From Deltaproteobacteria bacterium (GTDB taxonomy: Bacteria; SAR324; XYD2-FULL-50-16): a DNA stretch of 64,000 nucleotides. A program made the translations under genes and the position numbers. A model generated the notes under the pieces. It was not told the origin of the DNA, made no database searches, and saw only the letters and a list, made by a program, of their open reading frames with translations. Shown piece by piece: positions 1,263-64,000 of this stretch; position 1 is the first letter of the stretch, and each line of letters begins with the position of its first letter. The stretch lies in contig JABGPJ010000066.1 of NCBI GenBank assembly GCA_018645005.1, forward strand, positions 41,808 to 105,807. The letters are read 5' to 3'.

Positions 1263-1277
1263 CTGGTAGAGCTGGCT

Positions 1278-3326: not shown

Positions 3327-3387
3327 TCAGCAGAAAAACGCTGTTTTCAGATCACCGAAACAAAAATATTTCAGTCAGAAACTTAAG

Positions 3388-14131: not shown

Positions 14132-14157
14132 TCCACCTGACATAATCCAGATTTATT

Positions 14158-14210
14158 CAGCAATGTCCGGTTTGGTTTTTGTTTTGCAAAAACCTAACCG
14201 GTCATTGCTG
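14158..14210. mobile_element. MITE-like element, minimal 53-bp form (terminal inverted repeats only), with 9-bp target-site duplication
   Basis: CAGCAATGTCCGGTTTGGTTTTTG-TTT-GCAAAAACCTAACCGGTCATTGCTG, the same termini as the 9536-9773 element. Flanked by direct repeats AGATTTATT at 14149-14157 and 14211-14219. Begins 27 bp after the stop of the GH57 fusion gene. Confidence 0.7.
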
Positions 14211-14289
14211 AGATTTATTCAAAGATAGACCTTAAAAGGAGGCTACAACATCAGTAGTCTTTTACGTACTCAAATAGACAAGGAGTTTC

Positions 14290-43385: not shown

Positions 43386-43829
43386 ATGCCAAGTTTTGTG
43401 ATTACTGAGAAATGTGACGGTTGTAAAGGCCAGGACAAAACCGCTTGTATGTATATTTGTCCTCATGACCTGATGAAACTGGACATGGATTCAATGAAAG
43501 CATGGAACCAAGAACCGGTTCAGTGCTGGGAGTGCTATAACTGTGTAAAAATCTGCCCTCAACAGGCAATTGAAGTTAGATGTTATGCTGACTTTGCTCC
43601 ACTCGGGGCCGCATGTATCCCCATGAGAGGAACGGATACAATTATGTGGACCGTCAAGTTTCGCGATGGAATGATTAAAAGATTCAAGTTCCCGATCCGA
43701 ACTATCGAAGAAGGATCACTGTCAATTACTGATGGCGTGCAAGATGTCCAGGTTGACGTTAGCAAGATTAAAGAGCAGGGACTGTACACACAACAGGCTG
43801 CAGGCGTAACGTATCCCGTTCCGGCATAA
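43386..43829 (+). CDS. aprB: Adenylylsulfate (APS) reductase beta subunit
   Basis: MPSFVITEKCDGCKGQDKTACMYICPHDLM...CWECYNCVKICPQQAI...MWTVKFRDGMIKRFKFPIRT matches Desulfovibrio AprB almost motif for motif. Confidence 0.92.
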   Translation: MPSFVITEKCDGCKGQDKTACMYICPHDLMKLDMDSMKAWNQEPVQCWECYNCVKICPQQAIEVRCYADFAPLGAACIPMRGTDTIMWTVKFRDGMIKRFKFPIRTIEEGSLSITDGVQDVQVDVSKIKEQGLYTQQAAGVTYPVPA

Positions 43830-43899
43830 CTGTTGTTTTTGAATATTTTGATTTCACCGCTTATTTTACTCATTACAACCTTTTAGGAGTGTTAGCGTA

Positions 43900-45870
43900 A
43901 TGGAACCCAAAGTTAATAATTTTGAACATATTGAAAAGCCGGAGATCGTCGTCCATGAGACCGATCTTCTGTTGATCGGTGGTGGTATGGCAGCCTGTGG
44001 TACTGCATATGAAGCAGACAAATGGGCCAGCCCCCAGGGTATTAGAGTTACTATGGTTGATAAAGCAGCAGTTGATAGAAGTGGTGCTGTGGCCATGGGA
44101 CTTTCTGCAATCAATACGTATGTTGGCGAAAACAATGCTGCTGACTTCGTTAAGTACGTTCGACAGGACTTGATGGGTATTACCCGTGAAGACCTTGTTT
44201 ATGACCTGGCTCGCTGGGTTGATGATTCTGTTCATCTCTTTGAAGACTGGGGACTGCCCGTCTGGAAGAAAGGTGATGACAATGAATCTCTGGACGGACA
44301 TCAGGCTGCTAAAGCCGGCAAGCCTTCCCTGCGTGAAGGTGGAAAGCCAGTTCGTTCTGGTAAATGGCAGATCATGATCAACGGTGAATCCTACAAAGTG
44401 ATCGTTGGTGAAGCTGGAAAAGCTGGTCTGGAAGCAAACAGAGTTGCAACAGGTGTTGAGCAGAACCTTTTTGAGCGTGTTTTCATCATCAAAGTCCTGA
44501 ATGATAAAGATGATCCTACAAAAGTAGCTGGTGCAGTCGGTTTTAGCGTCAGGGAAAACAAGCTTTATATCTTTAAGTGCAAAACAGCACTTCTTGGCTG
44601 TGGTGGCTGTGTGAACTTCTTTAGAGGTCGTGCTACAGCTGAAGGTCAAGGTCGTGCATGGTTTCCTGTCTGGAACTCTGGCTCTAACTACGCCATGGGT
44701 GCTGAGGCTGGTGCTGAACTGGTCCTGATGGAAAATCGTTTCGTCCCTGCCCGTTTCAAGGATGGTTATGGTCCTGTAGGTGCTTGGTTTCTGCTTTTTA
44801 AAGCGAAGGCTACCAACGCACTGGGCGAAGATTACTGCGTGACAAACGCTGATGAAGCCAGAAAGTATTACGGCAAATATGTTGATGCGATCGGTACCTG
44901 TATGCGGAACCACATGATGATCATCGACATGAAAGCTGGTAAAGGTCCAATCAAGATTCATACTGATGTTGCTCTGCAAACACTGGGTGAAACTCTGGAC
45001 AAAAAAGCCATGAAGCATCTGGAAGCAGAAGCTTGGGAAGATTTCCTGGATATGTCAATATCTCAGGCTGGTGTATGGGCTGCTAACAACATGGCGCCTG
45101 AAAAAGTACCGTCTGAATTGATGCCTTCTGAGCCTTATATGTTGGGTTCACACGCTGGTTGCGCTGGCCTTTGGGTTAGTGGCCCTGGCGATTTCGGTCC
45201 TGCGGATTATTTCTGGGGATACAACAGAATGACCACCGTTAAAGGTCTGTTTACAGCTGGTGACGGTGCTGGTGCTTCCGGTCACAAGTTCTCTTCCGGT
45301 TCGCATGCTGAAGGTCGTGTAGCTGGAAAATCCATGGTTGCTTACTGCATGGATAATCCTGATATGCCTGCTTTCGCTGAAACAGAAGACGAATTGGCTG
45401 CTGAAGTATTCTTGCCAATGGAAACCTATGCCAAGTTCAGTGGTTATACCACTGATCCTGACATCAACCCCGAGTACATCCGTCCGGTTATGGTGCAGCA
45501 ACGTCTGCAGAAGATCATGGACGAGTATGTGGGTGGCACAAGTACTTACTACATGACCAGTGGAACCATGCTGACTGAAGGACTGAGCTACCTGGAAATG
45601 TTGAAAGAAGATGAAGTGCATATGGCTGCTGAGGATCTTCATGAACTGCTGAGAGCTTGGGAAAATCATCACAGAATTGTTGCTGCTGAAGCTCATGCAC
45701 AGCACATTCTGTTTAGAGAAGAAACTCGTTATCCTGGCTATTACTATCGTGGCGATTTTCTGGCTATTGATGATGAAAACTGGAAGTGTTTCACAAACTC
45801 AACCTATGATAAGAACACTAGAGAATTTAAAGTTTTCAAGCGTGATTATCATCAGATCATCCCTGAGTAA
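43900..45870 (+). CDS. aprA: Adenylylsulfate (APS) reductase alpha subunit
   Basis: FAD-binding LLLIGGGMAACG. Length 656 aa. Global similarity to AprA, including the C-terminal RYPGYYYR region. Immediately follows aprB. Confidence 0.95.
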   Translation: MEPKVNNFEHIEKPEIVVHETDLLLIGGGMAACGTAYEADKWASPQGIRVTMVDKAAVDRSGAVAMGLSAINTYVGENNAADFVKYVRQDLMGITREDLVYDLARWVDDSVHLFEDWGLPVWKKGDDNESLDGHQAAKAGKPSLREGGKPVRSGKWQIMINGESYKVIVGEAGKAGLEANRVATGVEQNLFERVFIIKVLNDKDDPTKVAGAVGFSVRENKLYIFKCKTALLGCGGCVNFFRGRATAEGQGRAWFPVWNSGSNYAMGAEAGAELVLMENRFVPARFKDGYGPVGAWFLLFKAKATNALGEDYCVTNADEARKYYGKYVDAIGTCMRNHMMIIDMKAGKGPIKIHTDVALQTLGETLDKKAMKHLEAEAWEDFLDMSISQAGVWAANNMAPEKVPSELMPSEPYMLGSHAGCAGLWVSGPGDFGPADYFWGYNRMTTVKGLFTAGDGAGASGHKFSSGSHAEGRVAGKSMVAYCMDNPDMPAFAETEDELAAEVFLPMETYAKFSGYTTDPDINPEYIRPVMVQQRLQKIMDEYVGGTSTYYMTSGTMLTEGLSYLEMLKEDEVHMAAEDLHELLRAWENHHRIVAAEAHAQHILFREETRYPGYYYRGDFLAIDDENWKCFTNSTYDKNTREFKVFKRDYHQIIPE

Positions 45871-45932
45871 TCCAGAGCCATCTGGTCTGGTATCTGCTGC
45901 GTAAGCTGCAGGTACCAGTTGTGTGAAAGACG

Positions 45933-45980
45933 ACAGAGTGGTGTCTTAGGAAAAACTTCGATGCCACTCTGTTTTTTTTA
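45933..45980 (+). terminator. Rho-independent terminator-like hairpin after aprA
   Basis: Stem ACAGAGTGG...CCACTCTGT followed by TTTTTTTT at 45972-45979. Read-through into qmoABC remains possible. Confidence 0.5.
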
Positions 45981-46119
45981 ATGTATGAGACGATCACCTC
46001 ATCAGATTCAATCCGGAAGTAAATATTTTAGTTCCAAACCGGTAAGACAGGTTTTAACACACAAAGCGAAAGAATTATTCACAATATTTAACTATCCGAT
46101 CCAACTACAAGGGAATTGA

Positions 46120-47373
46120 ATGGCAGAACAAAAAGGAAAGATATTAGTAATCGGTGGTGGAATCAGTGGTGTTTCTACAGCACTGGAAGCAGCCGAGGTC
46201 GGTTATGACGTAATTCTGGTTGAAAAAAATCCTTCCCTAGGAGGTCGAGTTTCCAGGTTTTATCAATATTTCCCAAAACTATGCCCTCCCCTTTGCGGAC
46301 TGGAAATCAACTACAAAAGACTGAAGCCGAACCCATATATACAAACACTCACAAACTCAGAAGTCGAGTCGATTTCCGGAGAACCTGGGAAATATCAGGT
46401 TAAAATCACGACAAATCCAACTTTCGTGAATGAGAAATGCGTCATTTGCGATAAATGTACGGAAGTTTGTCCATCGGAAAGAGAAAGTGAGCACAATTAC
46501 GGTTTGGATAAAACCAAAGCGATTTTTATACCGCATAAGATGGCCTATCCAGCTCGATTTACTATCGATAGGGACGCCTGCGATCCGTCATGCTCAAAAT
46601 GTGTTGAAGCATGCGAATACGATGCAATTGATCTGCAGATGCAACCCAAAACAACCGATATCGAAGTGGCAGCTATCGTTTATGCAACTGGATGGAAACC
46701 TTACGATGCCAATAAAATTGACAATCTTGGATTCGGGAAAGTTGAAAATGTGATCAACAACGTGATGATGGAGCGGATCGCTCATGGTCAAGGCCCCACT
46801 CAAGGCCAACTCCTGCGTCCGTCGGATCAGAAAAAAGCGGATTCGATCGCTTTCGTACAGTGTGCCGGGTCCAGGGATGAAAATCACCTGCCCTATTGTT
46901 CCGCTGTTTGCTGCCTGGCCTCATTGAAACAGGCCCGCTACGCAAGACTGGCGAATCCGGATGCAAAAATTTATATTTTCTACATTGATATTCGCTCACC
47001 TGGTAAATACGAAGATTTTGCGACTGAAATTCAAAAGGATGAGAACATCATCATGGTCAAAGGGAAAGTTGCCAAAGTGACCCAGGGCCAGGGCGGGAAT
47101 GTTGTTGTAGAAGCGGAAGATATCCTGAACGGCGGAAAAGTCAGCCTGGAAGTGGATATGGTTGTTTTGGCAACTGGAATGGAGTCCAGCATGAAGGGGG
47201 CAAATTTGCCGGATGTGGTTCAACTGGATGAAAACGGTTTTGTTGCACCAAATTTACAAAATCACGGGATCCTGTCCGCAGGAGTGGCAAAATTCCCAGG
47301 CGATGTTAACAGTTCTATTCAAGATTCAACCGGAGCAGCTTTAAAAGCGATTCAAACTGTAGTGGGGAATTAA
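46120..47373 (+). CDS. qmoA: Quinone-interacting membrane-bound oxidoreductase subunit A (HdrA-like flavoprotein)
   Basis: ILVIGGGISGVSTALEAAEVGYDVILVEK FAD motif and HdrA-like Cys clusters. Directly downstream of aprBA. Confidence 0.9.
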   Translation: MAEQKGKILVIGGGISGVSTALEAAEVGYDVILVEKNPSLGGRVSRFYQYFPKLCPPLCGLEINYKRLKPNPYIQTLTNSEVESISGEPGKYQVKITTNPTFVNEKCVICDKCTEVCPSERESEHNYGLDKTKAIFIPHKMAYPARFTIDRDACDPSCSKCVEACEYDAIDLQMQPKTTDIEVAAIVYATGWKPYDANKIDNLGFGKVENVINNVMMERIAHGQGPTQGQLLRPSDQKKADSIAFVQCAGSRDENHLPYCSAVCCLASLKQARYARLANPDAKIYIFYIDIRSPGKYEDFATEIQKDENIIMVKGKVAKVTQGQGGNVVVEAEDILNGGKVSLEVDMVVLATGMESSMKGANLPDVVQLDENGFVAPNLQNHGILSAGVAKFPGDVNSSIQDSTGAALKAIQTVVGN

Positions 47374-47377
47374 AAAT

Positions 47378-49534
47378 ATGGAAAAAAAGATAGGAGTTTA
47401 TATTTGTTCTGGATGCGATATTGATAAAGCGGTAGAGACAGAAGGACTGGAAAAAGTGGCGGCCAATGAATACAAGGTCCCGGTTTGTAAAACCCATCCT
47501 TTTCTGTGCAGCCAAGAAGGAATTCAGCTTTTAAAAGACGACCAGAAAAACGAAGGTGTTAATTGTTTTGTGATTGCTGCCTGCTCATCCCGATATCATC
47601 AGAACGATTTTGATATGGGCAAGGAATCTATAATAGTCAGAACCCCCATTCGTGAACAGGTTGCCTGGATTCTGGAGCCGCGGGATGCGGAAGGCAAAGT
47701 TAACGAAGATACACAGATGGCCGCGGAAGATTACATACGCATGTACACTTCCAGAGTCCGTTTGACCAATATCCCGGAACCGTATCAGCAGGAAGAAACA
47801 GATAAGAGTCTGATCGTTATCGGCGGAGGGGTTGCCGGGATGACTGCCTCTATCGAAGCGGCTAAAGCCGGGTATAAAATTAACCTGATTGAGAAGTCCA
47901 ACCAACTGGGTGGATTTGCTTTAAATGACAAAAGCATTATTCCGACACAGATGCCTTTTGAAGATCTGATGCCGAATAATGTGAGCGAATTGATTGCTGA
48001 AACAGAAGCTATCAAAAATATCACTGTGCACAAGTCCAGCACAGTTGCATCTATTGCGGGGGAACCCGGTGCGTTTCAAGTAAAACTGGAAAATGCTGCA
48101 GCAACTGAGTTTAAAGCGGGCGCTGTTGTGATGGCTTCTGGAGCAACACCCTATGATGCGAGTAAATTAACAGATCTGGGTATTGCTTTTGACAATGTTG
48201 TCAGCAGCATCGAATTTGAGGAGATGGCAAAATCGGGTGCCTTGAAAAGAGCGGATGGACAGCCGGTGAAAAGTGTGGCTTTTATCCAATGCGCTGGGTC
48301 CAGGGATGAAGACCATCTGCCTTACTGTTCTTCTACCTGCTGCATGACATCCTTGAAACAGGCGGCCTATGTCAGGGAACTGGATAGTGAAGCCAAAGCA
48401 TATATTATATATAAGGACATGCGTACGCCAGGTCAGTATGAGGCTTTCTATCGTAAACAGCAGGACGACCCTGGTGTTTTCATGACGAAGGGAAAGGTTG
48501 TGGCAGTCAATGAACTGTCTGACAAAAAAGTAGGCATTGATGTCGATGAGTCACTATTGGGCGAAAATATTCAGCTGCAGGCTGATCTGGTGGTGCTCGC
48601 TATCGGCCAGGTGCCTTCTACTCTGGAAGAGGGTTCAATCCTGAACCTGCAGTATCGACAGGGACCGGATATGCCGGACTTGAAGTATGGATATCCAGAC
48701 TCCCATTTTGTCTGTTTTCCGTATGAAACTAGAAGAACTGGAATTTATGCTGCAGGAACGGTCCGACAACCAATGGATAATAATTTCGCTGTCAGGGATG
48801 CTACAGGTGCGGCTCTAAAGGCGATACAGGCGGTTGAAATGGCCGATCTCGGTCAACGGATGCACCCCAGATCAGGCGATTTGACTTTTATGTCACCGGA
48901 TCTTTCTCGCTGTACAGACTGTAAGCGATGTACAGAAGAGTGCCCTTTCGGGGCCATTGATGAAAATGAAAAAGGGACCCCTCTGCCAAACTCGGCTCGT
49001 TGTCGAAGTTGTGGTATTTGTATGGGAGCCTGTCCTGAGAGAGTGATCTCATTTGCAGACTATAGTGTTTCGATTCTGTCTGAAATGATCAAAAATATCG
49101 AAATTCCCGATGAAGATGACGAAAAACCAAGAGTGGTTGTTTTCATCTGTGAAAATGATGCGATGCCGGCACTTGAGCAAATGGCCATGGATCGACAAAA
49201 AATCAGTCCGTTTGTTCGGTTTATTCCATTGAGATGTCTGGGTGGTAATAACCTGGTCTTCGTATCGGATGCCCTGTCTGTTGGCGTTGACGGTATGATG
49301 TATATGGGCTGCAAGCATGGTGATGATTATCAGTGCCACTTCATCAAGGGTAGTGAATTGTGTGACGAGCGGCTGGGCAAGGTTCAAGAAACCATCGGTA
49401 GACTCGCGCTGGAATCGGAAAGGATTCAGCAGTTCGAAATCAGCTTGAATGATGCACCAAAGCTGCCTCAAATAATCGCTGATTTTATGGAAGAGCTGGA
49501 AGATTACGGCCCCAATCCGTTTAAGGGTATGTAA
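47378..49534 (+). CDS. qmoB: Quinone-interacting membrane-bound oxidoreductase subunit B (HdrA-like with MvhD-like C-terminus)
   Basis: 718-aa protein. Second FAD motif VIGGGVAGMTASIEAAKAGY. Ferredoxin-type CxxCxxCxxxCP motifs. C-terminal Cys-rich MvhD-like region. Confidence 0.9.
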   Translation: MEKKIGVYICSGCDIDKAVETEGLEKVAANEYKVPVCKTHPFLCSQEGIQLLKDDQKNEGVNCFVIAACSSRYHQNDFDMGKESIIVRTPIREQVAWILEPRDAEGKVNEDTQMAAEDYIRMYTSRVRLTNIPEPYQQEETDKSLIVIGGGVAGMTASIEAAKAGYKINLIEKSNQLGGFALNDKSIIPTQMPFEDLMPNNVSELIAETEAIKNITVHKSSTVASIAGEPGAFQVKLENAAATEFKAGAVVMASGATPYDASKLTDLGIAFDNVVSSIEFEEMAKSGALKRADGQPVKSVAFIQCAGSRDEDHLPYCSSTCCMTSLKQAAYVRELDSEAKAYIIYKDMRTPGQYEAFYRKQQDDPGVFMTKGKVVAVNELSDKKVGIDVDESLLGENIQLQADLVVLAIGQVPSTLEEGSILNLQYRQGPDMPDLKYGYPDSHFVCFPYETRRTGIYAAGTVRQPMDNNFAVRDATGAALKAIQAVEMADLGQRMHPRSGDLTFMSPDLSRCTDCKRCTEECPFGAIDENEKGTPLPNSARCRSCGICMGACPERVISFADYSVSILSEMIKNIEIPDEDDEKPRVVVFICENDAMPALEQMAMDRQKISPFVRFIPLRCLGGNNLVFVSDALSVGVDGMMYMGCKHGDDYQCHFIKGSELCDERLGKVQETIGRLALESERIQQFEISLNDAPKLPQIIADFMEELEDYGPNPFKGM

Positions 49535-49705
49535 CCCGTGAACATTTTGAATTTTTGATTGAACATTCACTGTCATTTTGACCAATTCCAGTTTGTGTCA
49601 AAATGACATCTGTTATCTGACAATCTGTGGAACGTTAGTGATTTATTGGATAGTGTCTATATCCTGAGAAGATTGTCGAATACCAAATAATTGGAGGTTT
49701 TTCGA

Positions 49706-50914
49706 ATGTCAGACCGAGTATTAATCAATGCGGATTTGAAGTTTGTAGAGGGAGTAATGAAAGCAGGTGGGGAAGACCTGAATAAATGCTATCAATGCTC
49801 AACCTGCACGGTCGTTTGCCCACTTACTCCTGAAGGGGCTCCGTTCCCCAGAAAAGAGATGATAGCCGCACAGTGGGGTATCAAAGACAAACTGATCAAA
49901 AGTATGGACCCCTGGCTGTGCTTCCACTGTAATGACTGTTCAGAGCAGTGTCCGAGAGGAGCTAAACCAGGTGACGTGATGGCTGCGATTCGCAACATGA
50001 TTATTGCAAATGTAGCGGTTCCGTCCTTTCTGGGCAAATTAACCCAATCTGCCGGTGGCGCACTGGGACTGTTACTGTTCCCGATCATCCTGATTGCCGC
50101 TGTGATTTTTATGGTTAATGGTGGGGAAATGGCGTTTTTGGATAATCCGGTAATCGATTTTCACAAAAATATGATTTCTCAACTGGCCATTGAAATGATT
50201 TATATTCCGGCACTATTCTTTGGAATAATTACGGGTCTGTTAGGGGTCAAAAATTTGATAGCGGGCTTAAGCGAAACCTATCCTAAGACTGATAAAGGGG
50301 AAGCCCTGGTACCTGCCATCATCGGAACGGTGAAAGATATTCTGAGCCATAAAAAATTCAGGGAATGTGGGGTGAACCAGAGTCGGAATATTGCGCATAT
50401 GTTTCTGTTTTATGCTTTTATCGGCCTGGCGATCACGACCGCAGGTGTAACCGGGATTTATTATATCAACCTGTTTGCCGGCTCCAATGTTGTGACGCCG
50501 ACGCCACTGCCGTTCTTTCATCCCATCAAAATCATTGGTAACGTCAGTGCTCTGGCAGCTTCAATTGGTATCCTGTTGATTGTTTACAGAAGATTGACCG
50601 CCGAAAACGTCGGGAATACGGTTGCGTTTGACTGGATTTTCATCGTGAACATTCTGCTAATTGTAGCAACGGGTATCTTGGCACAAACAGTTCGGGTGGC
50701 TGGAAGTCAGGCTTCATACTTCATCTATTATTGCCATCTGGTTTTAGTTTTCTATCTCTTCATGTATATGCCACACTCGAAGTTCGGTCATATGTTTTAT
50801 CGAACTGCCGCTTTGGTCTATTCACGCTACTCAGGTCGTGAGAAAAGTATCGGGATGACTTTTCTGGAAGGGAAACAACAAGAACAACTTGAAGAATCAG
50901 ACAAAGTTGCATAA
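49706..50914 (+). CDS. qmoC: Quinone-interacting membrane-bound oxidoreductase subunit C (ferredoxin domain plus membrane heme b domain)
   Basis: N-terminal CYQCSTCTVVCP and CFHCNDCSEQCP iron-sulfur motifs, then six predicted transmembrane helices. Start set to ATG 49706 because a GGAGG site sits 8 bp upstream; the ORF track TTG at 49691 overlaps that site. Confidence 0.85.
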   Translation: MSDRVLINADLKFVEGVMKAGGEDLNKCYQCSTCTVVCPLTPEGAPFPRKEMIAAQWGIKDKLIKSMDPWLCFHCNDCSEQCPRGAKPGDVMAAIRNMIIANVAVPSFLGKLTQSAGGALGLLLFPIILIAAVIFMVNGGEMAFLDNPVIDFHKNMISQLAIEMIYIPALFFGIITGLLGVKNLIAGLSETYPKTDKGEALVPAIIGTVKDILSHKKFRECGVNQSRNIAHMFLFYAFIGLAITTAGVTGIYYINLFAGSNVVTPTPLPFFHPIKIIGNVSALAASIGILLIVYRRLTAENVGNTVAFDWIFIVNILLIVATGILAQTVRVAGSQASYFIYYCHLVLVFYLFMYMPHSKFGHMFYRTAALVYSRYSGREKSIGMTFLEGKQQEQLEESDKVA

Positions 50915-51014
50915 CAGTTTGCAGGTTTTGTAGTCTTTGTTGATCAATCTGTCACATCTGCCGCGATTCCTTTCGCGATAGATTTTTTTGAATAAAAACT
51001 GGGAGATACAGAAT

Positions 51015-52280
51015 ATGTCAAATTTAATAGCTCCGCATGGCGGAAAAGGTTTGGTTTGTGCGTTGCTGGAAGGCGCTGCACTGGAAGCGGAAAAGCAAAA
51101 AGCTGCAGGTTTGAAGCAACTTTCAATTTCAGGTCGTGAAAATGGTGACCTGATCATGATGGGTATCGGTGGATTCAGCCCTCTGAACGGTTTTATGGGA
51201 AAAGCTTCCTGGAAGCGCGTTTGTGAAGAATACTTGCTTGAAGATGGCACATTCTGGCCGATTCCGGTGACGCTGTCAGCCGATAAGGCAGATGCCGATG
51301 CGATCAATATTGGTGATGAAATCGCTCTGGTCAACCCTGATGGCGAAACAATGGCCACTATGAAGGTTGAAGAGAAGTTTGAAATGAGCGAAGCCGATAA
51401 GAAATGGGAATGTGAAAAATGCTATAAAGGCAAAGGTGAAGAAAGTGCAGACGATAAATTCTGGGAAATAGCCATGGAAGATCATCCTGGCGTTCAGATG
51501 GTAATGGGACAAAAAGACGTTAACCTGGCTGGCCCTGTTAAGGTACTTGGCGAAGGCGATTTCCGCGAAAGATTCCCTGGTGTATATATGTCACCGGCCG
51601 AAAGCCGCGCGATTTTTGAGAAAAAAGGCTGGTCAACTATTGCCGCTCTGCAACTCAGAAACCCGATGCACAGATCTCATGAGCATCTGGCCAAAATTGC
51701 GGCTGACGTATGTGATGGTGTTTTTATTCATTCACTGGTGGGCGCTTTGAAGCCTGGTGATATCCCGGCTGAAGTACGTATCGAGTGTATCGATACGTTG
51801 ATTGACGGCTATTTTGTCAAGGAAAACGTTGTTCAGGGTGGTTACCCCCTCGACATGCGCTATGCAGGACCGAGAGAAGGTCTGCTGCATGCCACTTTCA
51901 GACAAAACTATGGTGTCTCCAAAATGATTATTGGTCGTGACCATGCAGGCGTTGGTGATTTCTACGGTCTGTTTGATGCTCAGACCATTTTTGATGAAAT
52001 TCCAAAGCCTGAGGATGATGGTAAACGCCTGCTTTGTGAGCCACTGAAAATCGACTGGACCTTTTACTGCAAAACTTGTGATGGAATGGCGTCTCTCCGA
52101 ACATGTCCTCATGACGACTCAGTCCGTGTTAAACTTAGTGGAACCAAGCTGAGAAAAGCGTTGTCAGAAGGAACCGAGGTTGTAGATCATTTTGGTCGGG
52201 AAGAAGTCCTGGTTATTCTGAGAAAATACTATGCTGGCTTGAAGGACAAAGTTGAAATTAAGATGCATAACAAAGTCTAG
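51015..52280 (+). CDS. sat: Sulfate adenylyltransferase (ATP sulfurylase)
   Basis: [20 protein letters not shown] start as in Desulfovibrio Sat. [13 protein letters not shown] (QTRN/HxxH) active-site motifs. Start placed at the internal ATG at 51015. Confidence 0.9.
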
Positions 52281-52317
52281 TGATTGATTGATCACTGGAA
52301 AGTGTCTTTTAGCTTTA

Positions 52318-52352
52318 GGTGCGCCAATAGGCGCACCGTCAGAAGTTGTTTT
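52318..52352 (+). terminator. GC-rich hairpin after sat, a possible attenuating terminator
   Basis: GGTGCGCC-AATA-GGCGCACC at 52318-52337, followed by a T-rich tract (GTTGTTTTCT). Confidence 0.35.
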
Positions 52353-52408
52353 CTACCCTGACACGCAATTTTTAAGACGAATTATCAGAAATTAAGGAGA
52401 ATCTAATC

Positions 52409-53329
52409 ATGACAGTTTATGTAGTAGGGCATAAAAGCCCGGATACCGATTCTGTAACTGCTGCAATCGCCTATGCCGGATTGAAAAAAGCGCAGGGAGT
52501 AGACGCAGTTGCGGCTTGTCAGGGAGAACTTAACCCTGAAACACAGATGGTATTGGATAAGTTCGGCTTTTCCGCTCCTGAGATCGTAACAGACGCTGCT
52601 GGCAAACAGGTAATCCTGGTTGACCACGGTGACCTGGCGCAAGCCCCGGATAACCTGGCCGATGGTGAATTACTGGAAGTTGTTGACCACCATAAAGTGG
52701 GTGACATCACCACAAACGGCCCCATATTTTTCTATACCAAGCCTGTGGGCTGTACTGGTACAATCCTGAAAGAACTATATGATACAAACAGCGTGGAAAT
52801 TCCAGCCAATGTTGCTGGGATTCTGCTTTGCGCCATCTTGAGTGATACAGTGCTGTTTAAATCACCGACCTGTACTGAAGAAGATAAAAAGGCGTGTGAT
52901 GAACTGGCAAAGATCGCAGGCGTGGACAATATGGAAGCGCTGGCCATGGAAATGTTCAAAGCGAAATCAGCGGTTGCAGGTGTTCCAGCAAGAGATCTGG
53001 TATTCCGCGATTATAAAGATTTCGATATGGGCGGCAAGAAAGTGGGTATTGGTCAATTAGAACTGGTCGACCTTTCTCTGATCGATGATGTTCGCGACGA
53101 TCTGCTGAAGGCGGTTCAAGAAGTTAAGGCCGAAGGACGACATTCCGTTTTCCTGATGCTGACCGATATTATGAAAGAGGGATCTGACCTGATGGTTGTT
53201 TCGGATGATCCTTCTGTTGTGGAAAAAGCTTTTGGCAAAAAACTGGAAGGGACAACAGTTTGGGTTGATGGAATGATGAGCCGCAAGAAGCAGGCTGTTC
53301 CGCCTCTGCAGGAAGCTTTTGGTGCATAG
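52409..53329 (+). CDS. ppaC: Manganese-dependent inorganic pyrophosphatase (family II, DHH-DHHA2)
   Basis: MTVYVVGHKSPDTDSVTAAIAYA DHH motif, the downstream DHH and the DHHA2 GGH region. Length 306 aa. Confidence 0.9.
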   Translation: MTVYVVGHKSPDTDSVTAAIAYAGLKKAQGVDAVAACQGELNPETQMVLDKFGFSAPEIVTDAAGKQVILVDHGDLAQAPDNLADGELLEVVDHHKVGDITTNGPIFFYTKPVGCTGTILKELYDTNSVEIPANVAGILLCAILSDTVLFKSPTCTEEDKKACDELAKIAGVDNMEALAMEMFKAKSAVAGVPARDLVFRDYKDFDMGGKKVGIGQLELVDLSLIDDVRDDLLKAVQEVKAEGRHSVFLMLTDIMKEGSDLMVVSDDPSVVEKAFGKKLEGTTVWVDGMMSRKKQAVPPLQEAFGA

Positions 53330-58040: not shown

Positions 58041-58379
58041 ATGGGTTTTGAACTGAATGGCACAACTTATGAGACTGACGAAGATGGATACTTGATCAAC
58101 ATCGGTGGATGGAACGAAGATGTGGCCCATCACCTGGCTGAAGAAGAAGAGATTCCAGAACTGACCGAAAAACACTGGCAGATTATTAATTTTCTGAGAG
58201 GCTACTACGAAGAATACCAGATCGCGCCGATGATCAAGATTTTGATCAAAGCCATCATGAAAGATATGGATCTTTCCAAGCGTGATGCTTCAAAGATGCT
58301 GTATGAACTGTATCCTGCAGGACCTGCAAAGCAAGCCTGTAAAATTGCCGGACTGCCTAAGCCGACCGGTTGCGTCTAG
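58041..58379 (+). CDS. dsrC: Dissimilatory sulfite reductase subunit DsrC
   Basis: Ends with the diagnostic ...CKIAGLPKPTGCV C-terminal arm carrying both conserved cysteines. Start set at ATG 58041, which has a GGAG site upstream and gives the typical 112-aa size. Confidence 0.9.
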   Translation: MGFELNGTTYETDEDGYLINIGGWNEDVAHHLAEEEEIPELTEKHWQIINFLRGYYEEYQIAPMIKILIKAIMKDMDLSKRDASKMLYELYPAGPAKQACKIAGLPKPTGCV

Positions 58380-58512: not shown

Positions 58513-59727
58513 ATGTCAGATACACCAATGATGGACGAACTGGAAAAAGGTCCATGGCCAAGTTTCGTCAGAGAAATTAGAAGAGCCGGTAAGCAAAGTG
58601 CTACCGCAAGAGATTTAATTAATATTCTTGAACTGTCTTACAAAGATAAAAAAACCCACTGGAAACATGGTGGTGTTGTCGGTGTCAGGGGATACGGTGC
58701 CGGTGTTATCGGCCGCTATGTCGATGATCCCGTCCAGTTTCCCGGCGTTGCCCATTTCCATACGGTTCGTGTGAACCAGACCTCCGGTTTTGTGTACAAT
58801 ACCAAAGGACTGGGCGAGATCATGGATATCTGGGACAAACGTGGTTCCGGTATGACCAACATGCACGGTTCTACGGGTGACCTGGTTCTTCTAGGAACAA
58901 CCTCAGAACAACTGGATCCGATTTTTACTGACATCTCCCAGAAAGGTTGGGACTTGGGTGGTTCCGGATCGGATTTGAGAACACCAAGCTGCTGCCTGGG
59001 TCCTGCACGCTGTGAATACGCCTGTATCGACACACTGGCAATTACACGGGAGTGTACAAACTATTACCAGGATGAATTGCATCGCCCGGCGTTTCCATAC
59101 AAGTTTAAGATTAAAGTCGCCGGTTGTTCAAACGACTGTGTGGCATCGATTGCCCGTTCCGACCTCTCAATTATCGGAACCTGGAAAGATGATATCCGCA
59201 TTGATCAGGACGAAATTGCAAATTACGTCAAGGGTGGCGGAATTGATATCATGAAGGAAGTGGTCATGATGTGCCCAACCCAATGTATCGATTTTGATGG
59301 CACCAAAATGGAGATCGACAACAGCAACTGTGTTCACTGTATGCACTGCATCAACAAATTGACTAAGGCACTGCGTGTTGGAACAGATCAAGGTGCAACA
59401 ATTCTGCTGGGTGCTAAGGCGCCGATTGTTGAAGGAGCGATGCTTGCTTCCGTGATTGTACCCTTTATGAAACTGGAAGAACCATTTGAAAATCTGAAAG
59501 AATTGATCGAAGCTCTCTGGGAAGTCTGGGATGAAGATGGAAAGAACAAGGAGCGGATTGGTGAATTCATGGAAAGAATGGGGAAAGGTGAATTTGTTGA
59601 AGCTGTCGGAGAACAACTCGCTGACGGTGAATGCGGAATCGAAATGACCTCTCAAATTGATATGATTAACCATCCGAGAGAGAACCCATACATTTTCTAC
59701 GATGAGTATCTTGAAGAAGAAGGCTAG
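58513..59727 (+). CDS. dsrA: Dissimilatory sulfite reductase alpha subunit
   Basis: LEKGPWPSFV...HWKHGGVVGV...GVAHFHTVRV...LTNMHGSTGD...DELHRPAFPYKFKIKVAGCSNDCVASIARSD matches Desulfovibrio DsrA over nearly the full length. Confidence 0.95.
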   Translation: MSDTPMMDELEKGPWPSFVREIRRAGKQSATARDLINILELSYKDKKTHWKHGGVVGVRGYGAGVIGRYVDDPVQFPGVAHFHTVRVNQTSGFVYNTKGLGEIMDIWDKRGSGMTNMHGSTGDLVLLGTTSEQLDPIFTDISQKGWDLGGSGSDLRTPSCCLGPARCEYACIDTLAITRECTNYYQDELHRPAFPYKFKIKVAGCSNDCVASIARSDLSIIGTWKDDIRIDQDEIANYVKGGGIDIMKEVVMMCPTQCIDFDGTKMEIDNSNCVHCMHCINKLTKALRVGTDQGATILLGAKAPIVEGAMLASVIVPFMKLEEPFENLKELIEALWEVWDEDGKNKERIGEFMERMGKGEFVEAVGEQLADGECGIEMTSQIDMINHPRENPYIFYDEYLEEEG

Positions 59728-59832: not shown

Positions 59833-60906
59833 ATGGCAGAAGAAAGAATTACTGACCAGGGTGCGAAGGACTATAAAGAGTTCCTGCATCCGGTTATGGT
59901 AAAAAATTACGGACAGTGGAAATACCACGAAATTCTCAAGCCTGGTGTTCTGGTCCATGTCGCTGATTCCGGAGATAAGATTTACAGTGTCCGGGTCGCT
60001 TCACCCAGGCTGTTGAGCACGGTGAGTATTCGGTTTTTCATGTCTGTTGCGGATAAGTATTGTGACGGTTTCCTGAGATGGACAACCCGAAACAACGTTG
60101 AGTTCCTGACTGATAAGGAAGAAAATGTTGAACTGATCATCAAGGCTGTGAACGACGATGGCTGGCCGGTCGGTGGAACAGGAAGAACTGCTTCCAACGT
60201 TGTGCATACACAGGGTTGGGTTCATTGTCATACATCGGCAACTGATGCTTCCGGTATCGTAAAATCACTGATGGATGAGGTTTTCGAGGATTTTACATCA
60301 GAGAATCTTCCCGGAAAACTGAAACTGGCTCTGGCCTGTTGTCTGAATATGTGTGGTGCGGTCCACGCATCTGACATCTCCATTCTCGGTATTCACCGTC
60401 GACCCCCCAAGGTAGATTATCACTTGCTGGGTCAGATCTGTGAAATTCCGACAACTATCGCAGCTTGTCCGACTGGAGCGATCCGTCAGGATATCGTCGA
60501 TGGTGTGAAAGCGATGAAAATAATTGAAGATCAGTGTATGTTCTGCGGTGCCTGCTACACAGCTTGCCCCAACATGCCTCTGGCAGATGCCCTGAATGAC
60601 GGTGTCTCTATCTGGGTCGGTGGGAAGATTGCAAACGCCAGATCCAAACCCGGCTTCACCAAGCTGGTTGTCCCTTTTCTTCCGAATAATCCGCCGCGAT
60701 GGCCGGAAGTTATTGATGCCGTGAAGAAAATTATTCAGGTATACAAAGATAACGGAAGAAAATGGGAACGCCTTGGCGAGATGATCGATCGGATTGGTTG
60801 GGCGAAGTTTTTTAAGCTGACAGGTTTTGCGTTTACCAAATATCATATTGATGATTATAAATTGGCGACCAAATCCTATAATATGTCGGCTCATGTAAGA
60901 TTTTAG
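59833..60906 (+). CDS. dsrB: Dissimilatory sulfite reductase beta subunit
   Basis: [59 protein letters not shown]...[11 protein letters not shown] matches DsrB. Siroheme/iron-sulfur Cys clusters are present. Confidence 0.95.
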
Positions 60907-60915: not shown

Positions 60916-61188
60916 ATGGCAGTAGATTTAAATGTAGTAGCTGAAGATATGTTTGAAATGGTTAAAGAAGTTGCCGGCATCAAAAAATTAAAACCGGGTG
61001 ACGTTTTGAAAGCCATGGTCAAGAAGTATGGGGATCAGGGATTCACGAAGAAAGATGCGAAAGCAGCTATCCGCATTCTGATTGATGGTGAAAGGCTGGT
61101 ATATACCTATATCAACGGCTCTTTTGTTGAACTGCCCCATGAAGACGGCGCCGCTATGGCCGCTAATGAGGCTGCAAGGAATAAATAA
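60916..61188 (+). CDS. dsrD: DsrD-like small winged-helix protein
   Basis: 90-aa ORF starting 10 bp after dsrB, the canonical dsrD position. LVYTYINGSFVEL resembles the DsrD wing region. The sequence match is weaker than for dsrAB. Confidence 0.65.
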   Translation: MAVDLNVVAEDMFEMVKEVAGIKKLKPGDVLKAMVKKYGDQGFTKKDAKAAIRILIDGERLVYTYINGSFVELPHEDGAAMAANEAARNK

Positions 61189-61264: not shown

Positions 61265-61627
61265 ATGTTTGTAATAACTGAACGCGCGGCAGAGCAGTTT
61301 AAAAACTCTGCTGATGCAGTGGGTGATGATACCGTTTCATTGCGGATCTCCGCTAGAATATCCGTTCCCGGCGGTATGAAGTATAATATGGGCTTTGACC
61401 ATCAAAAAGAGGATGACACAGCCTGTGAGATATCCGGGATAAAGTTTCTACTGGATCCGGAATCGGTTAAAAATACAAAGGATATGTTGGTTGACTTTCG
61501 AGACTTTGAGGGCGCTGAACAATTTGTATTTCTGAACCCCAATGATAAAAAAGAAAACTGTGAAACATCACCCGATGGGTGTGATCCCGATGGTAACCCA
61601 ACCTGTAAAACCTGTACAGGGGATTAG
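61265..61627 (+). CDS. HesB/IscA-family (A-type carrier) protein with atypical Cys-rich C-terminal tail
   Basis: IscA-like core (SLRISARISVPGGMKYNMGFD...FVFLNPN) but the canonical CGCG tail is replaced by NCETSPDGCDPDGNPTCKTCTGD, which has 5 Cys. Confidence 0.55.
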   Translation: MFVITERAAEQFKNSADAVGDDTVSLRISARISVPGGMKYNMGFDHQKEDDTACEISGIKFLLDPESVKNTKDMLVDFRDFEGAEQFVFLNPNDKKENCETSPDGCDPDGNPTCKTCTGD

Positions 61628-61937
61628 GGCTGGCCACCAGGAGAACAGCACTTCCCGGACGGAGAGGTAAAGTACGACCGCCGTTGGAATCCGGTTTTCA
61701 AGAAAACCAGTGTAAGGTCCGAAGACTTCTTGCCCGGTTGGGCCTGAGCTCATCTGACAAACAGGCAATTCAGATTAGCTGCCTGTATTTAACTAGAGGC
61801 TGACCCCGCTGGGAATCGCTACAAACATTCTCCGGTGAACGTTAATTAATTCATGGTCGGTGGATATGGTAATTTCAAATTGCCTGGAAACTGCCTATTT
61901 TCTTTGATTGTGAAAAATTTTTTAAACAGGAAGAAAT

Positions 61938-63614
61938 ATGGCCATCGTTGTTAGAAAGATAAAAAGACCAGTTAGAGCCCATATCGGCGGCGGGAAAAAA
62001 TCCCAGAGTACGAAGCTGCCACGATATGTCGCCAAGCGGCCGCCATGTACTGATACATGTCCAAGCAGCGAGGATATCCGTGGGTATCTGACATATATTG
62101 CTCAGTCTGAAGAGTATGGACGGACTTTCGAAGAGTCCATGGAGCAAGCATGGCATATGCTGACAGACAAAAACCCGATGCCGGCTGTCATGGGAAGGGT
62201 TTGTCCTCACCCATGTGAAACAGCATGTAATCGTAAAGATAAAGACGGCGCTGTCAGTATTAATAAAGTAGAACTGTCGATTGGACAATTCGGGCTGGAA
62301 AACAAACTGGCTCTGAAAGCATTAACGGAAGAGAAGACGGGCAAGAAGATTGCTGTTATCGGTAGTGGACCGTCCGGTATCTCATGCGCTTACCAACTCG
62401 TCAGAAAAGGTCACTCTGTGACTGTTTTTGAATCCAAGTCAGAACCAGGTGGAATGATTCGCTGGGGTATTCCCGCATATCGACTGCCAAGAGATATTAT
62501 TGCAGCAGAATATCAAAGAATTTTTGATCTGGGCGTTGAATTCAAACCGAATACCAAGGTTGGAAAAGATATCAGTCTGGATCAACTGAAAAGTGATTAT
62601 GATGCGATTTATCAAGCAATTGGTGCTCAGGTTGGTTGGTCTCTCGGATTAGACGGAGAAGATTCAGCTAATGTTTATACGGGTGTTGAATTCCTGTACA
62701 AGCATAATATGCAGGAACAGATGAATATTGGTGATAAGGTGATCGTCGTGGGTGGTGGTGACACTGCTATGGACGTTGCCAGAAGCTGCAAACGGATGGG
62801 AGCTGATGTGACGGTTGTTTATCGCCGGAGCAGAAACGAAATGCCCGCTATTGAAGAAGATATCGTCGGTGCTGAAGAAGAAGGGATTAACTTCAATTTC
62901 CTATGTACACCAATTAAACTACAGGTTGCAGACGGAAACGTTACCGGGATGACATGTGTACGCATGGAACTGGGTGAGCCGGATGAAAGTGGTCGGGCCA
63001 GCTTTTCTGTGATTGATGGGTCCGAGTTTGATATCGCAGCCACCTCTTTAATTCCTTCCATCAGCCAGGAAGCTGATTTTGAGGGTATGGAAGAGATGAA
63101 AAATGAGAAAAACTGGACGTCTATTGCCACAGATTTCGGTCGTTTGAGTGAAGATGGCAAAATCTGGTCTGGTGGGGATGTGACCAGAGGCTTGGGGTTA
63201 GTGACTGAGGCTGTTGGTGACGGACGGATTGCTGCTGAAGATATTGATCGCTTTGTGATGGGCGCTGAATATGAGAAGCCGGAAGTCATGCCGGTGATCA
63301 ATTCTGCGACGATGCACATGCAACATTATGCAGATGCAGCTCGCAATTCCATTGGTGAAAAACCCGGTGCTGAAAGGATCTCTGACTTTAATGAGTATAT
63401 TATTCCTTTCACCATTGAAGCGATCAAAGCAGAAACAGCTCGCTGTATGAGTTGTGGTTCCTGTTTTGATTGTGAAAACTGCTGGAAGTTCTGTGGTGAT
63501 GGTGCTGTCAATAAGCTCGCCAAGGGGCAGCACTTTGAATTCAATCTGGATAAATGTATTGGTTGTAGTAAATGTATGGAAGAGTGCCCATGCGGACTGA
63601 TTGACATGATCTAA
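61938..63614 (+). CDS. GltD-family NAD(P)H-dependent iron-sulfur flavoprotein with C-terminal 2x[4Fe-4S] ferredoxin domain (DsrL-like architecture)
   Basis: GltD N-terminal Cys pattern (CTDTCP...RVCPHPCETAC). FAD motif IAVIGSGPSG. Second dinucleotide motif VIVVGGGDTAMD. A C-terminal extension carries CMSCGSCFDCENC and CIGCSKCMEECP. Confidence 0.6.
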   Translation: MAIVVRKIKRPVRAHIGGGKKSQSTKLPRYVAKRPPCTDTCPSSEDIRGYLTYIAQSEEYGRTFEESMEQAWHMLTDKNPMPAVMGRVCPHPCETACNRKDKDGAVSINKVELSIGQFGLENKLALKALTEEKTGKKIAVIGSGPSGISCAYQLVRKGHSVTVFESKSEPGGMIRWGIPAYRLPRDIIAAEYQRIFDLGVEFKPNTKVGKDISLDQLKSDYDAIYQAIGAQVGWSLGLDGEDSANVYTGVEFLYKHNMQEQMNIGDKVIVVGGGDTAMDVARSCKRMGADVTVVYRRSRNEMPAIEEDIVGAEEEGINFNFLCTPIKLQVADGNVTGMTCVRMELGEPDESGRASFSVIDGSEFDIAATSLIPSISQEADFEGMEEMKNEKNWTSIATDFGRLSEDGKIWSGGDVTRGLGLVTEAVGDGRIAAEDIDRFVMGAEYEKPEVMPVINSATMHMQHYADAARNSIGEKPGAERISDFNEYIIPFTIEAIKAETARCMSCGSCFDCENCWKFCGDGAVNKLAKGQHFEFNLDKCIGCSKCMEECPCGLIDMI

Positions 63615-63625
63615 TCGTTAATAAA

Positions 63626-63662
63626 AAGTCTCTGCTGATTCTTCACAGAGACTTTTTTTTTG
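63626..63662 (+). terminator. Rho-independent terminator
   Basis: AGTCTCTG-ctgattcttca-CAGAGACT followed by a T run (TTTTTTTTT), 12 bp after the stop of the DsrL-like gene. Confidence 0.75.
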
Positions 63663-63672: not shown

Positions 63673-64000
63673 ATGGAATTAGTAAATAAGTTATCAGAAA
63701 AGAAACAGGAGATTGTGCGGGAGTGGATTCGTAAAACGATGGAGGCTTATCCCGCAGAGTCTCTCGCTGTTTTGAACCGGAATAAAAACCAGTTTGCTAA
63801 TCCATTATCTCATACTATTTCCGAAAATATTGACCTTCTCTTTGAAGAACTGCTGAGCGAGATAAATCCTGAAAAAGTGGCCCCGATTCTTGATAAAGTT
63901 ATACGTATCAGGGCTGTGCAGGATATGGCGCCAGCAAAGGCAATCTCTTTTGTCTTTGATCTGAAAGGGGTGATTCGAGATGCGCTGAAAGATGAGATTC
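63673..64000 (+). CDS. Partial ORF running off the window end, possibly an RsbRD N-terminal-like regulatory domain
   Basis: ATG at 63673. MELVNKLSEKKQEIVREWIRKTMEAYP...QFANPLSHTISENIDLLFEEL resembles the W...YP...FxNPxG pattern remembered for the RsbRD_N domain. Absent from the ORF track because no stop lies inside the window. Confidence 0.3.
   Translation, partial: MELVNKLSEKKQEIVREWIRKTMEAYPAESLAVLNRNKNQFANPLSHTISENIDLLFEELLSEINPEKVAPILDKVIRIRAVQDMAPAKAISFVFDLKGVIRDALKDEI

Follow-up and report, generated by a model that had tools for sequence, protein, structure and literature searches.

Bacteria of the SAR324 phylum are abundant in the deep ocean and in the subsurface, and the direction in which their Dsr system operates is debated. 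For the iron-sulfur flavoprotein DsrL, NAD(P)H:acceptor activity (NAD(P), nicotinamide adenine dinucleotide (phosphate)) and electron exchange with DsrAB have been demonstrated only with the enzymes of Allochromatium vinosum, C. tepidum and Desulfurella amilsii (Löffler 2020, PMC7596348). The same work defined the type DsrL-2, Lambdaproteobacteria included, and reported that DsrL-2 accompanies reductive DsrAB and that the D. amilsii enzyme uses NADP(H) only. Metagenome-assembled genomes (MAGs) of SAR324 with both dsrD and dsrL-2 are known, and reductive dsrAB genes are typically followed by these two genes (Diao 2023, PMC10591310). Of 31 Dsr-encoding SAR324 genomes, nearly all encode DsrL, and many encode DsrD, DsrR and DsrT (Klier 2024, PMC11406059); MAGs with dsrD and dsrL-2 have been read as reductive (PMC10591310; PMC11406059). 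Here we describe the dsrL gene at positions 61938..63614 (+) of a 64,000-nucleotide stretch, referred to as the window, from a SAR324 assembly (GCA_018645005.1, contig JABGPJ010000066.1, positions 41,808 to 105,807). We consider it likely that the encoded protein is an iron-sulfur flavoprotein of the DsrL-2 type from a member of the SAR324 phylum and that its gene belongs to one dissimilatory sulfur cluster. DsrL-2 together with dsrD in SAR324 has already been described in Diao 2023 and Klier 2024, and the picture published in the three studies is unchanged; the window adds one more clean, contiguous 'DsrD-encoding' SAR324 cluster of the order apr-qmo-sat-acl-dsrCABD-R-L-T.

Identity, architecture and subtype of the DsrL protein

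The open reading frame (ORF) is exactly as initially annotated, i.e. complete, with an ATG start and 558 amino acids (aa) long. It is designated dsrL type 2, a predicted NAD(P)H:acceptor iron-sulfur flavoprotein, on the basis of the ORF itself, Pfam and NCBIfam models, trees, a YRR motif, an AlphaFold2 model and its identity to OGG97050. The best matches of the protein are 558-aa proteins from SAR324 MAGs with 90% identity, annotated merely as 'FAD-dependent oxidoreductase' (FAD, flavin adenine dinucleotide), and such public annotations of this protein could be corrected to DsrL-2. OGG97050 (A2527_03055; P0040 in our set), with 55% identity over the full length, is the DsrL of Candidatus Lambdaproteobacteria RIFOXYD2_FULL_50_16 in Supplementary Table 1 and in the tree of Löffler 2020 (PMC7596348).

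The phylogenetic trees were computed by neighbour-joining with bootstraps, not by maximum likelihood. As references we included E. coli GltD, T. maritima NfnB, P. furiosus SudA/NfnI, S. ovata StnC and the genomic NfnB of a related locus, L004; further members were Chromatium DsrL-1A (context dsrABEFHCMK-L-JOPN), 34 locus-derived DsrLs and 150 library representatives, and the D. amilsii, A. vinosum and C. tepidum sequences were left out. The window protein, the SAR324 sequences and the curated Lambdaproteobacteria DsrL form a group with 100% bootstrap. Together with all DsrLs linked to dsrAB-D and a 603-aa protein linked to dsrAB-L, this group makes up a clade with 81% bootstrap, and the DsrL-1A-like proteins constitute a clade neighbouring the dsrAB-D-linked DsrLs. 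The NfnB/SudA sequences form a separate 99-100% clade, and E. coli GltD is the outgroup. In the phylogeny that the initial annotation had suggested as a check, the protein thus groups with DsrL, outside NfnB/SudA (99%) and GltD. With its position in the curated DsrL clade, its ferredoxin domain and the dsrMKJOP genes found in relatives, the proposed identity as DsrL is supported.

All three features by which Löffler 2020 includes a protein as DsrL are present, namely dsrAB in the organism, the complete set of domains in order, and no pyruvate:ferredoxin oxidoreductase neighbours. The dsrA and dsrB genes lie 2.2-3.4 kb upstream of dsrL on the same strand. The direct neighbours of dsrL are an IscA/HesB-like gene (5') and a dsrT-like gene with an RsbRD_N domain (3'), and no pyruvate/ketoisovalerate:ferredoxin oxidoreductase genes adjoin it. 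At the N-terminus, DsrL is distinguished by a Ser or Thr in place of NfnB Cys39, with Cys47, 51, 90, 96 and 100 and Glu117 conserved (PMC7596348). Here, the former position is Ser24, and the other ligands align as Cys37, 41, 89, 93 and 97 and Glu112.

The domain architecture agrees with that claimed for DsrL in the initial annotation, according to both Pfam and the AlphaFold2 model. From the N-terminus, an Fe-S domain of the NfnB/DPD type (Fer4_20, residues 33-118) is followed by an FAD fold (Pyr_redox_2, 137-429), into which the Rossmann fold for NAD(P) is inserted (Pyr_redox, 267-338); after a linker, the protein closes with a ferredoxin domain for two clusters, matched by 4Fe-4S di-cluster models (508-557). 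By the boundaries set here, the linker spans residues ~442-502 and is ~60 aa long, compared to the '~100 aa' given in Löffler 2020 (PMC7596348). Only one curated full-length NCBIfam model is passed, the generic 'NAD(P)-binding protein' NF009410/PRK12771 (609.5 bits, cutoff 516); the protein scores far under each cutoff of the GltD, NfnB-fusion, AegA and YgfK models. An identity as GltD was rejected, as TIGR01317 gave 235 bits (cutoff 448) and TIGR01318 277 bits (cutoff 483), with no gltB nearby. The AlphaFold2 model, computed from an 81-sequence alignment, reached a predicted local distance difference test score (pLDDT) of 91.4 and a predicted template modelling (TM) score of 0.89, and it confidently predicts a fold like that of NfnB, extended by an Fe-S domain at the C-terminus. 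In Foldseek, NfnABC and StnABC large subunits match best (query-normalised TM 0.79-0.81), followed by NfnB/SudA (TM 0.66-0.68) and then by GltD and dihydropyrimidine dehydrogenase; no solved DsrL structure was found in the structure searches, Foldseek included.

Among the 81 aligned relatives, the N-terminal residues Cys37, 41, 89, 93 and 97 and Glu112 are invariant. The claimed N-terminal Cys cluster pattern of the GltD/NfnB type holds for these five cysteines and the glutamate; the full NfnB set is absent, since the positions aligned with NfnB Cys39 and Cys42 are Ser24 and Leu27 (within S-T-K-L-P-R-Y). This would leave the distal N-terminal cluster with two Cys ligands, and members of the clade may therefore bind three clusters, not four. 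The C-terminal domain, whose presence had been named as a further check, contains Cys503, 506, 509, 512, 515, 519, 540, 543, 546, 550 and 552, and its motif cysteines are invariant in the same alignment. Two CxxCxxCxxxCP motifs had been reported. Both CxxCxxCxxxC stretches exist (509-519 and 540-550), and the second is followed by the expected proline, the first by a glycine.

Just N-terminal of the ferredoxin motifs, an E-x2-R-C-x2-C-G motif (residues 499-507, about nucleotides (nt) 63432-63458) carries the extra invariant cysteines C503 and C506; it is similar to the start of the N-terminal domain of NfnB. C552 (about nt 63591-63593) is invariant among close relatives. With C503, C506 and C552 conserved, the ferredoxin domain has 10-11 conserved cysteines, and two clusters need eight.

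The subtype was assigned from the coenzyme motif and the length of two segments. Residues Y295-R296-R297, within ...DVTVVYRRSRNEMPA..., form the YRR motif that Löffler 2020 (PMC7596348) tied to NADP(H) specificity and to DsrL-2. The insertions of DsrL-1A, ~32 aa in the NAD(P) domain and a ~30-aa longer linker, are missing, and the protein has 558 aa versus 654 aa in Chromatium DsrL-1A. Since YRR occurs together with a short NAD(P) domain and linker, the protein is assigned to DsrL-2 and is predicted to be NADPH-dependent. In the scheme of Diao 2023 (PMC10591310), DsrL-2C is encoded near reductive-type dsrAB and dsrD in genomes lacking oxidative dsrAB; judged by the adjacent genes for reductive DsrAB and a DsrD-like protein, the window protein would correspond to this subcluster.

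One residue departs from the common pattern. In organisms with reductive DsrAB, DsrL-2 has an Arg at the position of NfnB Cys42, two Lambdaproteobacteria with Leu excepted (PMC7596348), and the window protein has Leu27. All 30 retrieved DsrLs that are encoded downstream of dsrAB-dsrD and lie outside the SAR324/Lambdaproteobacteria clade carry the Arg, and Chromatium DsrL-1A has a Cys. Within the clade, the Lambdaproteobacteria DsrL subclade (P0032, P0035, P0040 and P0046) has C-R-E in place of Y-R-R at the positions of residues 295-297, where all DsrL-2 except those of Acidulodesulfobacterales were stated to carry YRR (Löffler 2020, PMC7596348). Judging from this alignment, C-R-E versus YRR may reflect a switch between NAD(H) and NADP(H) preference inside one clade.

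The sulfur gene cluster and its conservation

The last 21 kb of the window are occupied by one co-directional sulfur cluster, and the remainder holds housekeeping genes. The gene order is aprBA-qmoABC-sat-pyrophosphatase-aclBA-dsrC-dsrAB-dsrD(-like)-dsrR(-like)-dsrL-dsrT-[dsrMKJOP], the bracketed part lying past the window. As initially described, dsrL has the same direction as the dsrC, dsrAB and dsrD-like genes, all on the + strand. It does not, however, follow dsrABD immediately, because a 120-aa IscA/HesB-like ORF (61265-61627) and a spacer of 310 nt intervene.

The dsrA gene (58513..59727, +) is of the reductive bacterial type (TIGR02064, 531 bits, cutoff 392.85) and is followed by dsrB (59833..60906, +; TIGR02066, 479 bits, cutoff 341.5). 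For comparison, species-representative genomes were scanned with a DsrA alignment, which gave at least 80 dsrA loci from reductive-type lineages, with no SAR324 among the matches listed. The window DsrA shares 53-66% identity with 82 DsrAs of reductive lineages (Thermodesulfovibrio 64%, Desulfurivibrio 54%, Ca. Electronema 53%), 42-43% with Chromatium rDsrA and 46% with DsrA from a locus that has dsrAB-L but no dsrD; solved reductive DsrA structures were matched with 472-508 bits. By these identities, it is clearly nearer to the reductive types. Upstream lies dsrC (58041..58379, +; Pfam DsrC, 142.6 bits), with 112 aa when read from an internal ATG, the listed ORF starting at GTG 57948. Its C-terminus, CKIAGLPKPTGCV, retains both conserved cysteines, and L007, a closely related locus, encodes a 112-aa DsrC with 91% identity.

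The ORF directly downstream of dsrB (60916..61188, +; 90 aa) had been taken for dsrD. It did not match the Pfam family DsrD (PF08679) even at E <= 10, DsrD was not recovered from the PDB with either phmmer or a profile hmmsearch, and an hhalign comparison with D. vulgaris DsrD gave a probability of 1.8%. Homologues of the ORF (33-60% identity; 74% in L007) stand directly after dsrB in 59 loci among the matches listed, i.e. in 56 of 80 scanned dsrA loci and in the related loci L003, L004 and L007. Hosts of this post-dsrB family include Thermodesulfovibrio and MAGs of Desulfobaccales, Syntrophobacterales and Desulfobacterales. A Desulfobacterales positional orthologue scores 17.9 bits against PF08679 (cutoff 24.2), and one family member matches weakly (E = 0.004). 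AlphaFold2 predicts a fold (pLDDT 88) whose best matches are winged-helix proteins, Z-alpha domains among them, in agreement with what has been reported for DsrD (PMC8794893). From position, post-dsrB homology and predicted winged-helix fold, the gene probably encodes a DsrD-like protein, although it lacks a Pfam DsrD match.

The 120-aa ORF (61265..61627, +), which the initial annotation passes over, resembles IscA/HesB, with Pfam Fe-S_biosyn and TIGR00049 scores under the family cutoffs. It lacks Cys35 and the C-G-C motif of E. coli IscA, and its tail has C-x7-C-x7-C-x2-C instead. Its position is conserved in L003, L007, L010 and L090. DsrR, an IscA-like regulator-associated protein known from A. 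vinosum, has been found with DsrT in many SAR324 genomes (Klier 2024, PMC11406059), and the similarity and location of the 120-aa ORF make it most likely the DsrR reported there. No DsrR gene was found after dsrN in the Chromatium-like locus L006.

Of the spacer upstream of dsrL (61628-61937, 310 nt), the last ~120 nt are almost identical to L007 and the remainder is ~65% identical. This suggests a promoter or 5' leader specific to dsrL, with 61820..61937 (+) as the candidate. No Rfam family was found in the whole window, the spacer included. A consensus scan gave promoter matches at chance level, with no convincing sigma-70 or sigma-54 consensus in the conserved leader; a sigma-54-like reading of TGGTAATTTCAAATTGC was rejected because its GG-GC spacing is 2 nt too long. 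Downstream of dsrL, the strong terminator noted initially was borne out by direct folding. A terminator-like hairpin (63623-63657) with a U9 tract, together at 63623..63661 (+), has a free energy of -18.6 kcal/mol (z -5.48), and 0 of 200 shuffled sequences were as stable; the consensus terminator scan had missed it owing to a bulge. The window ends within a dsrT-like gene (63673..64000, +; Pfam RsbRD_N, E = 1e-16), whose available part is 72% identical to the gene preceding dsrMKJOP in L007. A search for dsrMKJOP elsewhere in the genome had been recommended. In the relatives L007 and L090 these genes directly follow dsrL-dsrT, so that here, by synteny, they almost certainly lie just past the window end.

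The arrangement around dsrL is shared with several related loci. L007 (89-90% identity) and L090 (80%) have the order (sat-pyrophosphatase-aclBA)-dsrC-AB-90aa-120aa-dsrL-dsrT-dsrMKJOP, and L003 (68%; on a 2.46-Mb contig) has dsrAB-83aa-124aa-dsrL. L004 (54%) combines dsrMKJOP-dsrC-dsrEFH-x-dsrAB-82aa-dsrL. A DsrL homologue (42-53% identity) was located downstream of dsrAB-D in 34 of 80 dsrA loci among the matches listed, and dsrAB-D-dsrL synteny is maintained in many phyla over an identity range of 42% to 90%. The statement that DsrL is only sporadic in sulfate reducers therefore undersells the frequency of dsrAB-D-L outside the classical Desulfobacterota.

Some neighbouring genes in these loci may be recorded here. 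Directly 3' of the dsrL orthologue, L004 carries a rubrerythrin gene and then a canonical nfnA-nfnB pair (11830-14688), which shows that DsrL and NfnB coexist as distinct paralogues. In L003, genes for SoxZ, a SoxY-like protein, a SoxB-like metallophosphoesterase and a cytochrome c (53-4132) are found a few kb upstream of dsrAB-D-R-L. L010 (9610-16105; DsrB 70%, DsrD-like protein 55%) has dsrC-AB-D-HesB-like-dsrT-dsrMK with no dsrL there, and since the cluster is otherwise identical, dsrL would have been either inserted or lost.

The 5' part of the cluster is a sulfate-activation module (43386..53329, +) with aprB (start 43386), aprA (43900), qmoA (46120), qmoB (47378), a qmoC-like gene (49691), sat (50988) and a gene for a DHH-family pyrophosphatase (52409), all on the + strand. 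They were assigned by the Pfam families APS-reductase_C, FAD_binding_2/Succ_DH_flav_C, Pyr_redox_2, FlpD, Fer4, ATP-sulfurylase and DHH/DHHA2. Between the pyrophosphatase gene and dsrC lie genes for two ATP-citrate-lyase-like subunits (53742-54971 and 55082-57796, +; ATP-grasp_2/Citrate_bind and CoA_binding/Succ_CoA_lig/Citrate_synt), an order that recurs in L090 (80%) and, at the locus edge, in L007; with 904 aa, the alpha subunit is of unusual length. The ATP-citrate-lyase genes inside the cluster hint at a genetic coupling of autotrophy via the reverse tricarboxylic acid (TCA) cycle to Dsr metabolism. A Crp/Fnr-type regulator gene (cNMP-binding and HTH_Crp_2 domains; 39787-40518, -) is situated ~3 kb upstream of aprB, and a second, stand-alone cNMP-binding protein is encoded at 19317-19826 (-); both may act as regulators of the sulfur cluster.

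Proposed function and alternative readings

The cofactor motifs, the fold, the family and the linkage to dsrAB are read directly from the DNA and protein sequences, and the mechanism is modelled on characterised family members (PMC7596348, PMC8794893). NADPH would be bound by the embedded Rossmann fold, with YRR accommodating the 2'-phosphate, and would reduce the FAD. Electrons would then exit singly via the proximal N-terminal [4Fe-4S] cluster (Cys41, Cys89, Cys93, Glu112) and reach the flexible ferredoxin domain at the C-terminus with its two [4Fe-4S] clusters. This domain would dock on DsrAB, which would reduce sulfite with DsrC as co-substrate, and DsrD would serve alongside as an allosteric activator of DsrAB. 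The initial annotation had electrons pass to DsrAB via DsrC. In the published model, DsrL does exchange electrons with DsrAB (PMC7596348, PMC8794893), and 'via DsrC' is a loose wording since DsrC is the co-substrate. DsrL would thus constitute a soluble NADPH-linked electron input to sulfite reduction, besides the membrane-bound DsrMKJOP route.

Several points weigh against the assignment as a dedicated, reductive DsrL-2. YRR is also present in NfnB, so that by sequence the motif would type a DsrL without defining one, and the deep nodes of the neighbour-joining trees are weak (24-49% bootstrap). The gene of the curated Lambdaproteobacteria homologue adjoins a rhodanese gene and lies apart from dsr genes, and in L010 the same cluster has no dsrL in the corresponding place. 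With Leu27 for the Cys/Arg ligand and Ser24 for Cys39, the distal N-terminal cluster may be missing or unusual. The terminator 3' and the long spacer 5' of dsrL indicate that it may be transcribed apart from dsrAB. Moreover, the function proposed for the SAR324/Lambdaproteobacteria clade would be carried over from enzymes outside it, and the DsrAB of DsrD-encoding SAR324 was placed between the reductive and oxidative clades, with reversible operation being considered (Klier 2024, PMC11406059).

An alternative reading is possible, if rather unlikely, namely that DsrL-2 works here in an oxidative or reversible Dsr system (sulfur oxidation or disproportionation) and passes electrons from DsrAB to NADP+, for example to supply NADPH for reverse-TCA autotrophy via ATP-citrate lyase. 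Besides the intermediate DsrAB placement and the switching considered in Klier 2024, it is favoured by the mixture of reductive markers (dsrD-like, dsrT) with oxidation-linked genes (dsrL, DsrR-like) in the cluster, and by the ATP-citrate-lyase genes conserved within it. DsrL-2 has also been found with oxidative DsrAB (PMC7596348; PMC10591310), and soxYZ/soxB-like genes are near dsrAB in L003 (68%), as are dsrEFH in the same operon of L004 (54%). Yet no dsrEFH genes were found in the 64-kb window, DsrA is nearer to the reductive types (53-66% versus 42-43%), and a DsrD-like gene is present, dsrD being absent from known sulfur oxidisers with rDsrAB (PMC8794893). The complete apr-qmo-sat set fits sulfate reduction equally, and NADPH suits the reductive direction, as argued by Löffler 2020 (PMC7596348).

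An extended version of this reading, which we hold to be unlikely, slightly more so than its simpler form, takes the SAR324 dsrAB-D-R-L-T genes and ATP-citrate lyase as one reversible or oxidative system, with DsrL-2 as the NADP+ reductase for reverse-TCA autotrophy. In it, the Ser24/Leu27 exchanges would have cost the protein its distal N-terminal [4Fe-4S] cluster, and they would have rerouted the electrons by way of the C-terminal domain, which has two additional invariant cysteines.

A general role as a PRK12771-family oxidoreductase, of the NADPH:ferredoxin-like or NADPH:acceptor kind, is improbable; the protein would then merely be encoded near dsr genes without being dedicated to DsrAB. 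The generic NF009410 as the sole curated model passed would fit such a role, as would the separate spacer and terminator of dsrL, the rhodanese gene instead of dsrAB beside the Lambdaproteobacteria homologue, and the size of the ~560-aa family with this architecture, many members of which are not dsr-linked. This is opposed by the dsrAB-D synteny conserved from 42% to 90% identity in many phyla, by dsr genes on both flanks in this lineage (dsrD/R 5', dsrT-MKJOP 3'), and by the clade that the protein forms with dsr-linked sequences.

A bifurcating transhydrogenase subunit of the NfnB/SudA type or the glutamate synthase small subunit GltD, finally, shares fold and core (34-38% identity, TM ~0.67 to structures) and, in NfnB, the YRR motif, but is so improbable that we rejected it by tree, architecture and missing partner genes, since NfnB/SudA form their separate 99-100% clade with GltD outside, the C-terminal ferredoxin domain absent in NfnB and GltD is present, the NfnB Cys39/Cys42 ligands are lacking, the spacing before Cys37 is 5 residues longer, no NfnA or GltB partner gene is nearby, and a true nfnAB pair stands alongside the dsrL orthologue in L004.

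In the preferred reading as DsrL-2, the protein would give sulfite reductase a soluble NADPH-linked electron route. This is of interest since DsrL-2, dsrD, dsrEFH, dsrR and dsrT are used genomically to guess reduction, oxidation or disproportionation in uncultured organisms. In the portions of Löffler 2020, Diao 2023 and Klier 2024 available to us, the split between YRR and C-R-E, the two extra invariant cysteines and the ATP-citrate-lyase genes in the cluster are not stated.

Comparison with described DsrL and NfnB-type proteins

The nearest described relative is the Lambdaproteobacteria DsrL OGG97050, a protein counted as dsrL-2 in Diao 2023 (PMC10591310). Besides the 55% full-length identity (559 versus 558 aa) and the identical domain order, all Fe-S cysteines are conserved, the positions of NfnB Cys39 and Cys42 are likewise Ser and Leu, and both proteins fall into the group with 100% bootstrap. 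They differ in the coenzyme motif, which is C-R-E there and YRR, with predicted NADPH use, in the window protein, and in their location. Whereas the window gene is placed within a dsr cluster, that of OGG97050 is found beside rhodanese, away from dsrAB; in its locus (L001, 10001-12165) the rhodanese-domain gene lies 3', and a hybrid histidine kinase gene lies 5' on the opposite strand.

The DsrL-2 of Desulfurella amilsii, as described in Löffler 2020, agrees with the window protein in architecture and in carrying YRR; in both, the NAD(P) domain and the linker are short, and both co-occur with DsrAB of the reductive type. The difference is at the position of NfnB Cys42, where Arg was reported for this type of DsrL-2 with reductive DsrAB (PMC7596348) and Leu is found here. 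A similar picture emerges for DsrL-2C of Acidobacteriota, Gemmatimonadota, Zixibacteria, Ignavibacteria, Planctomycetota and others. These proteins share the gene order dsrA-dsrB-dsrD-(0-1 gene)-dsrL, 42-53% identity and the YRR motif, and they fall into one clade with the window DsrL. They have S-x-x-R-P with the Arg ligand, whereas the window protein has S-T-K-L-P, and their dsrC gene is usually 3' of dsrL, unlike in the window, where dsrC is 5' of dsrA and dsrT-MKJOP are 3'.

DsrL-1A of the Allochromatium vinosum type, represented by the 654-aa Chromatium okenii-like protein from a dsrABEFHCMKLJOPN cluster, has the same domain order, the C-terminal ferredoxin domain and the Ser at Cys39. 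It shows only 33-39% identity, is ~95 aa longer, with extra residues inserted in the NAD domain and an extended linker, and carries Cys at the position of Cys42 and S-L-F (NAD(H)) for YRR. Its partners are the oxidative rDsrAB and dsrEFH, with no dsrD.

More distant are NfnB/SudA (4YLF_B of T. maritima, 5JCA_L of P. furiosus) and the corresponding modules of NfnABC/StnABC (9BOV_A, 9N5U_A, 8OH5_C), which have in common with the window protein the N-terminal Fe-S domain and FAD/NADPH core (35-38% identity, query-normalised TM 0.67-0.81), the YRR motif and the proximal-cluster ligands including Glu. The NfnABC/StnABC large subunits have long extra domains. NfnB/SudA are ~470 aa long, lack the C-terminal ferredoxin domain, need NfnA and form separate clades in the trees. 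Membership of the window protein in NfnB/SudA was rejected, as it has the ferredoxin domain, lacks the two N-terminal cysteines of the RCxxC motif (Cys39/Cys42) and is not encoded next to NfnA/SudB.

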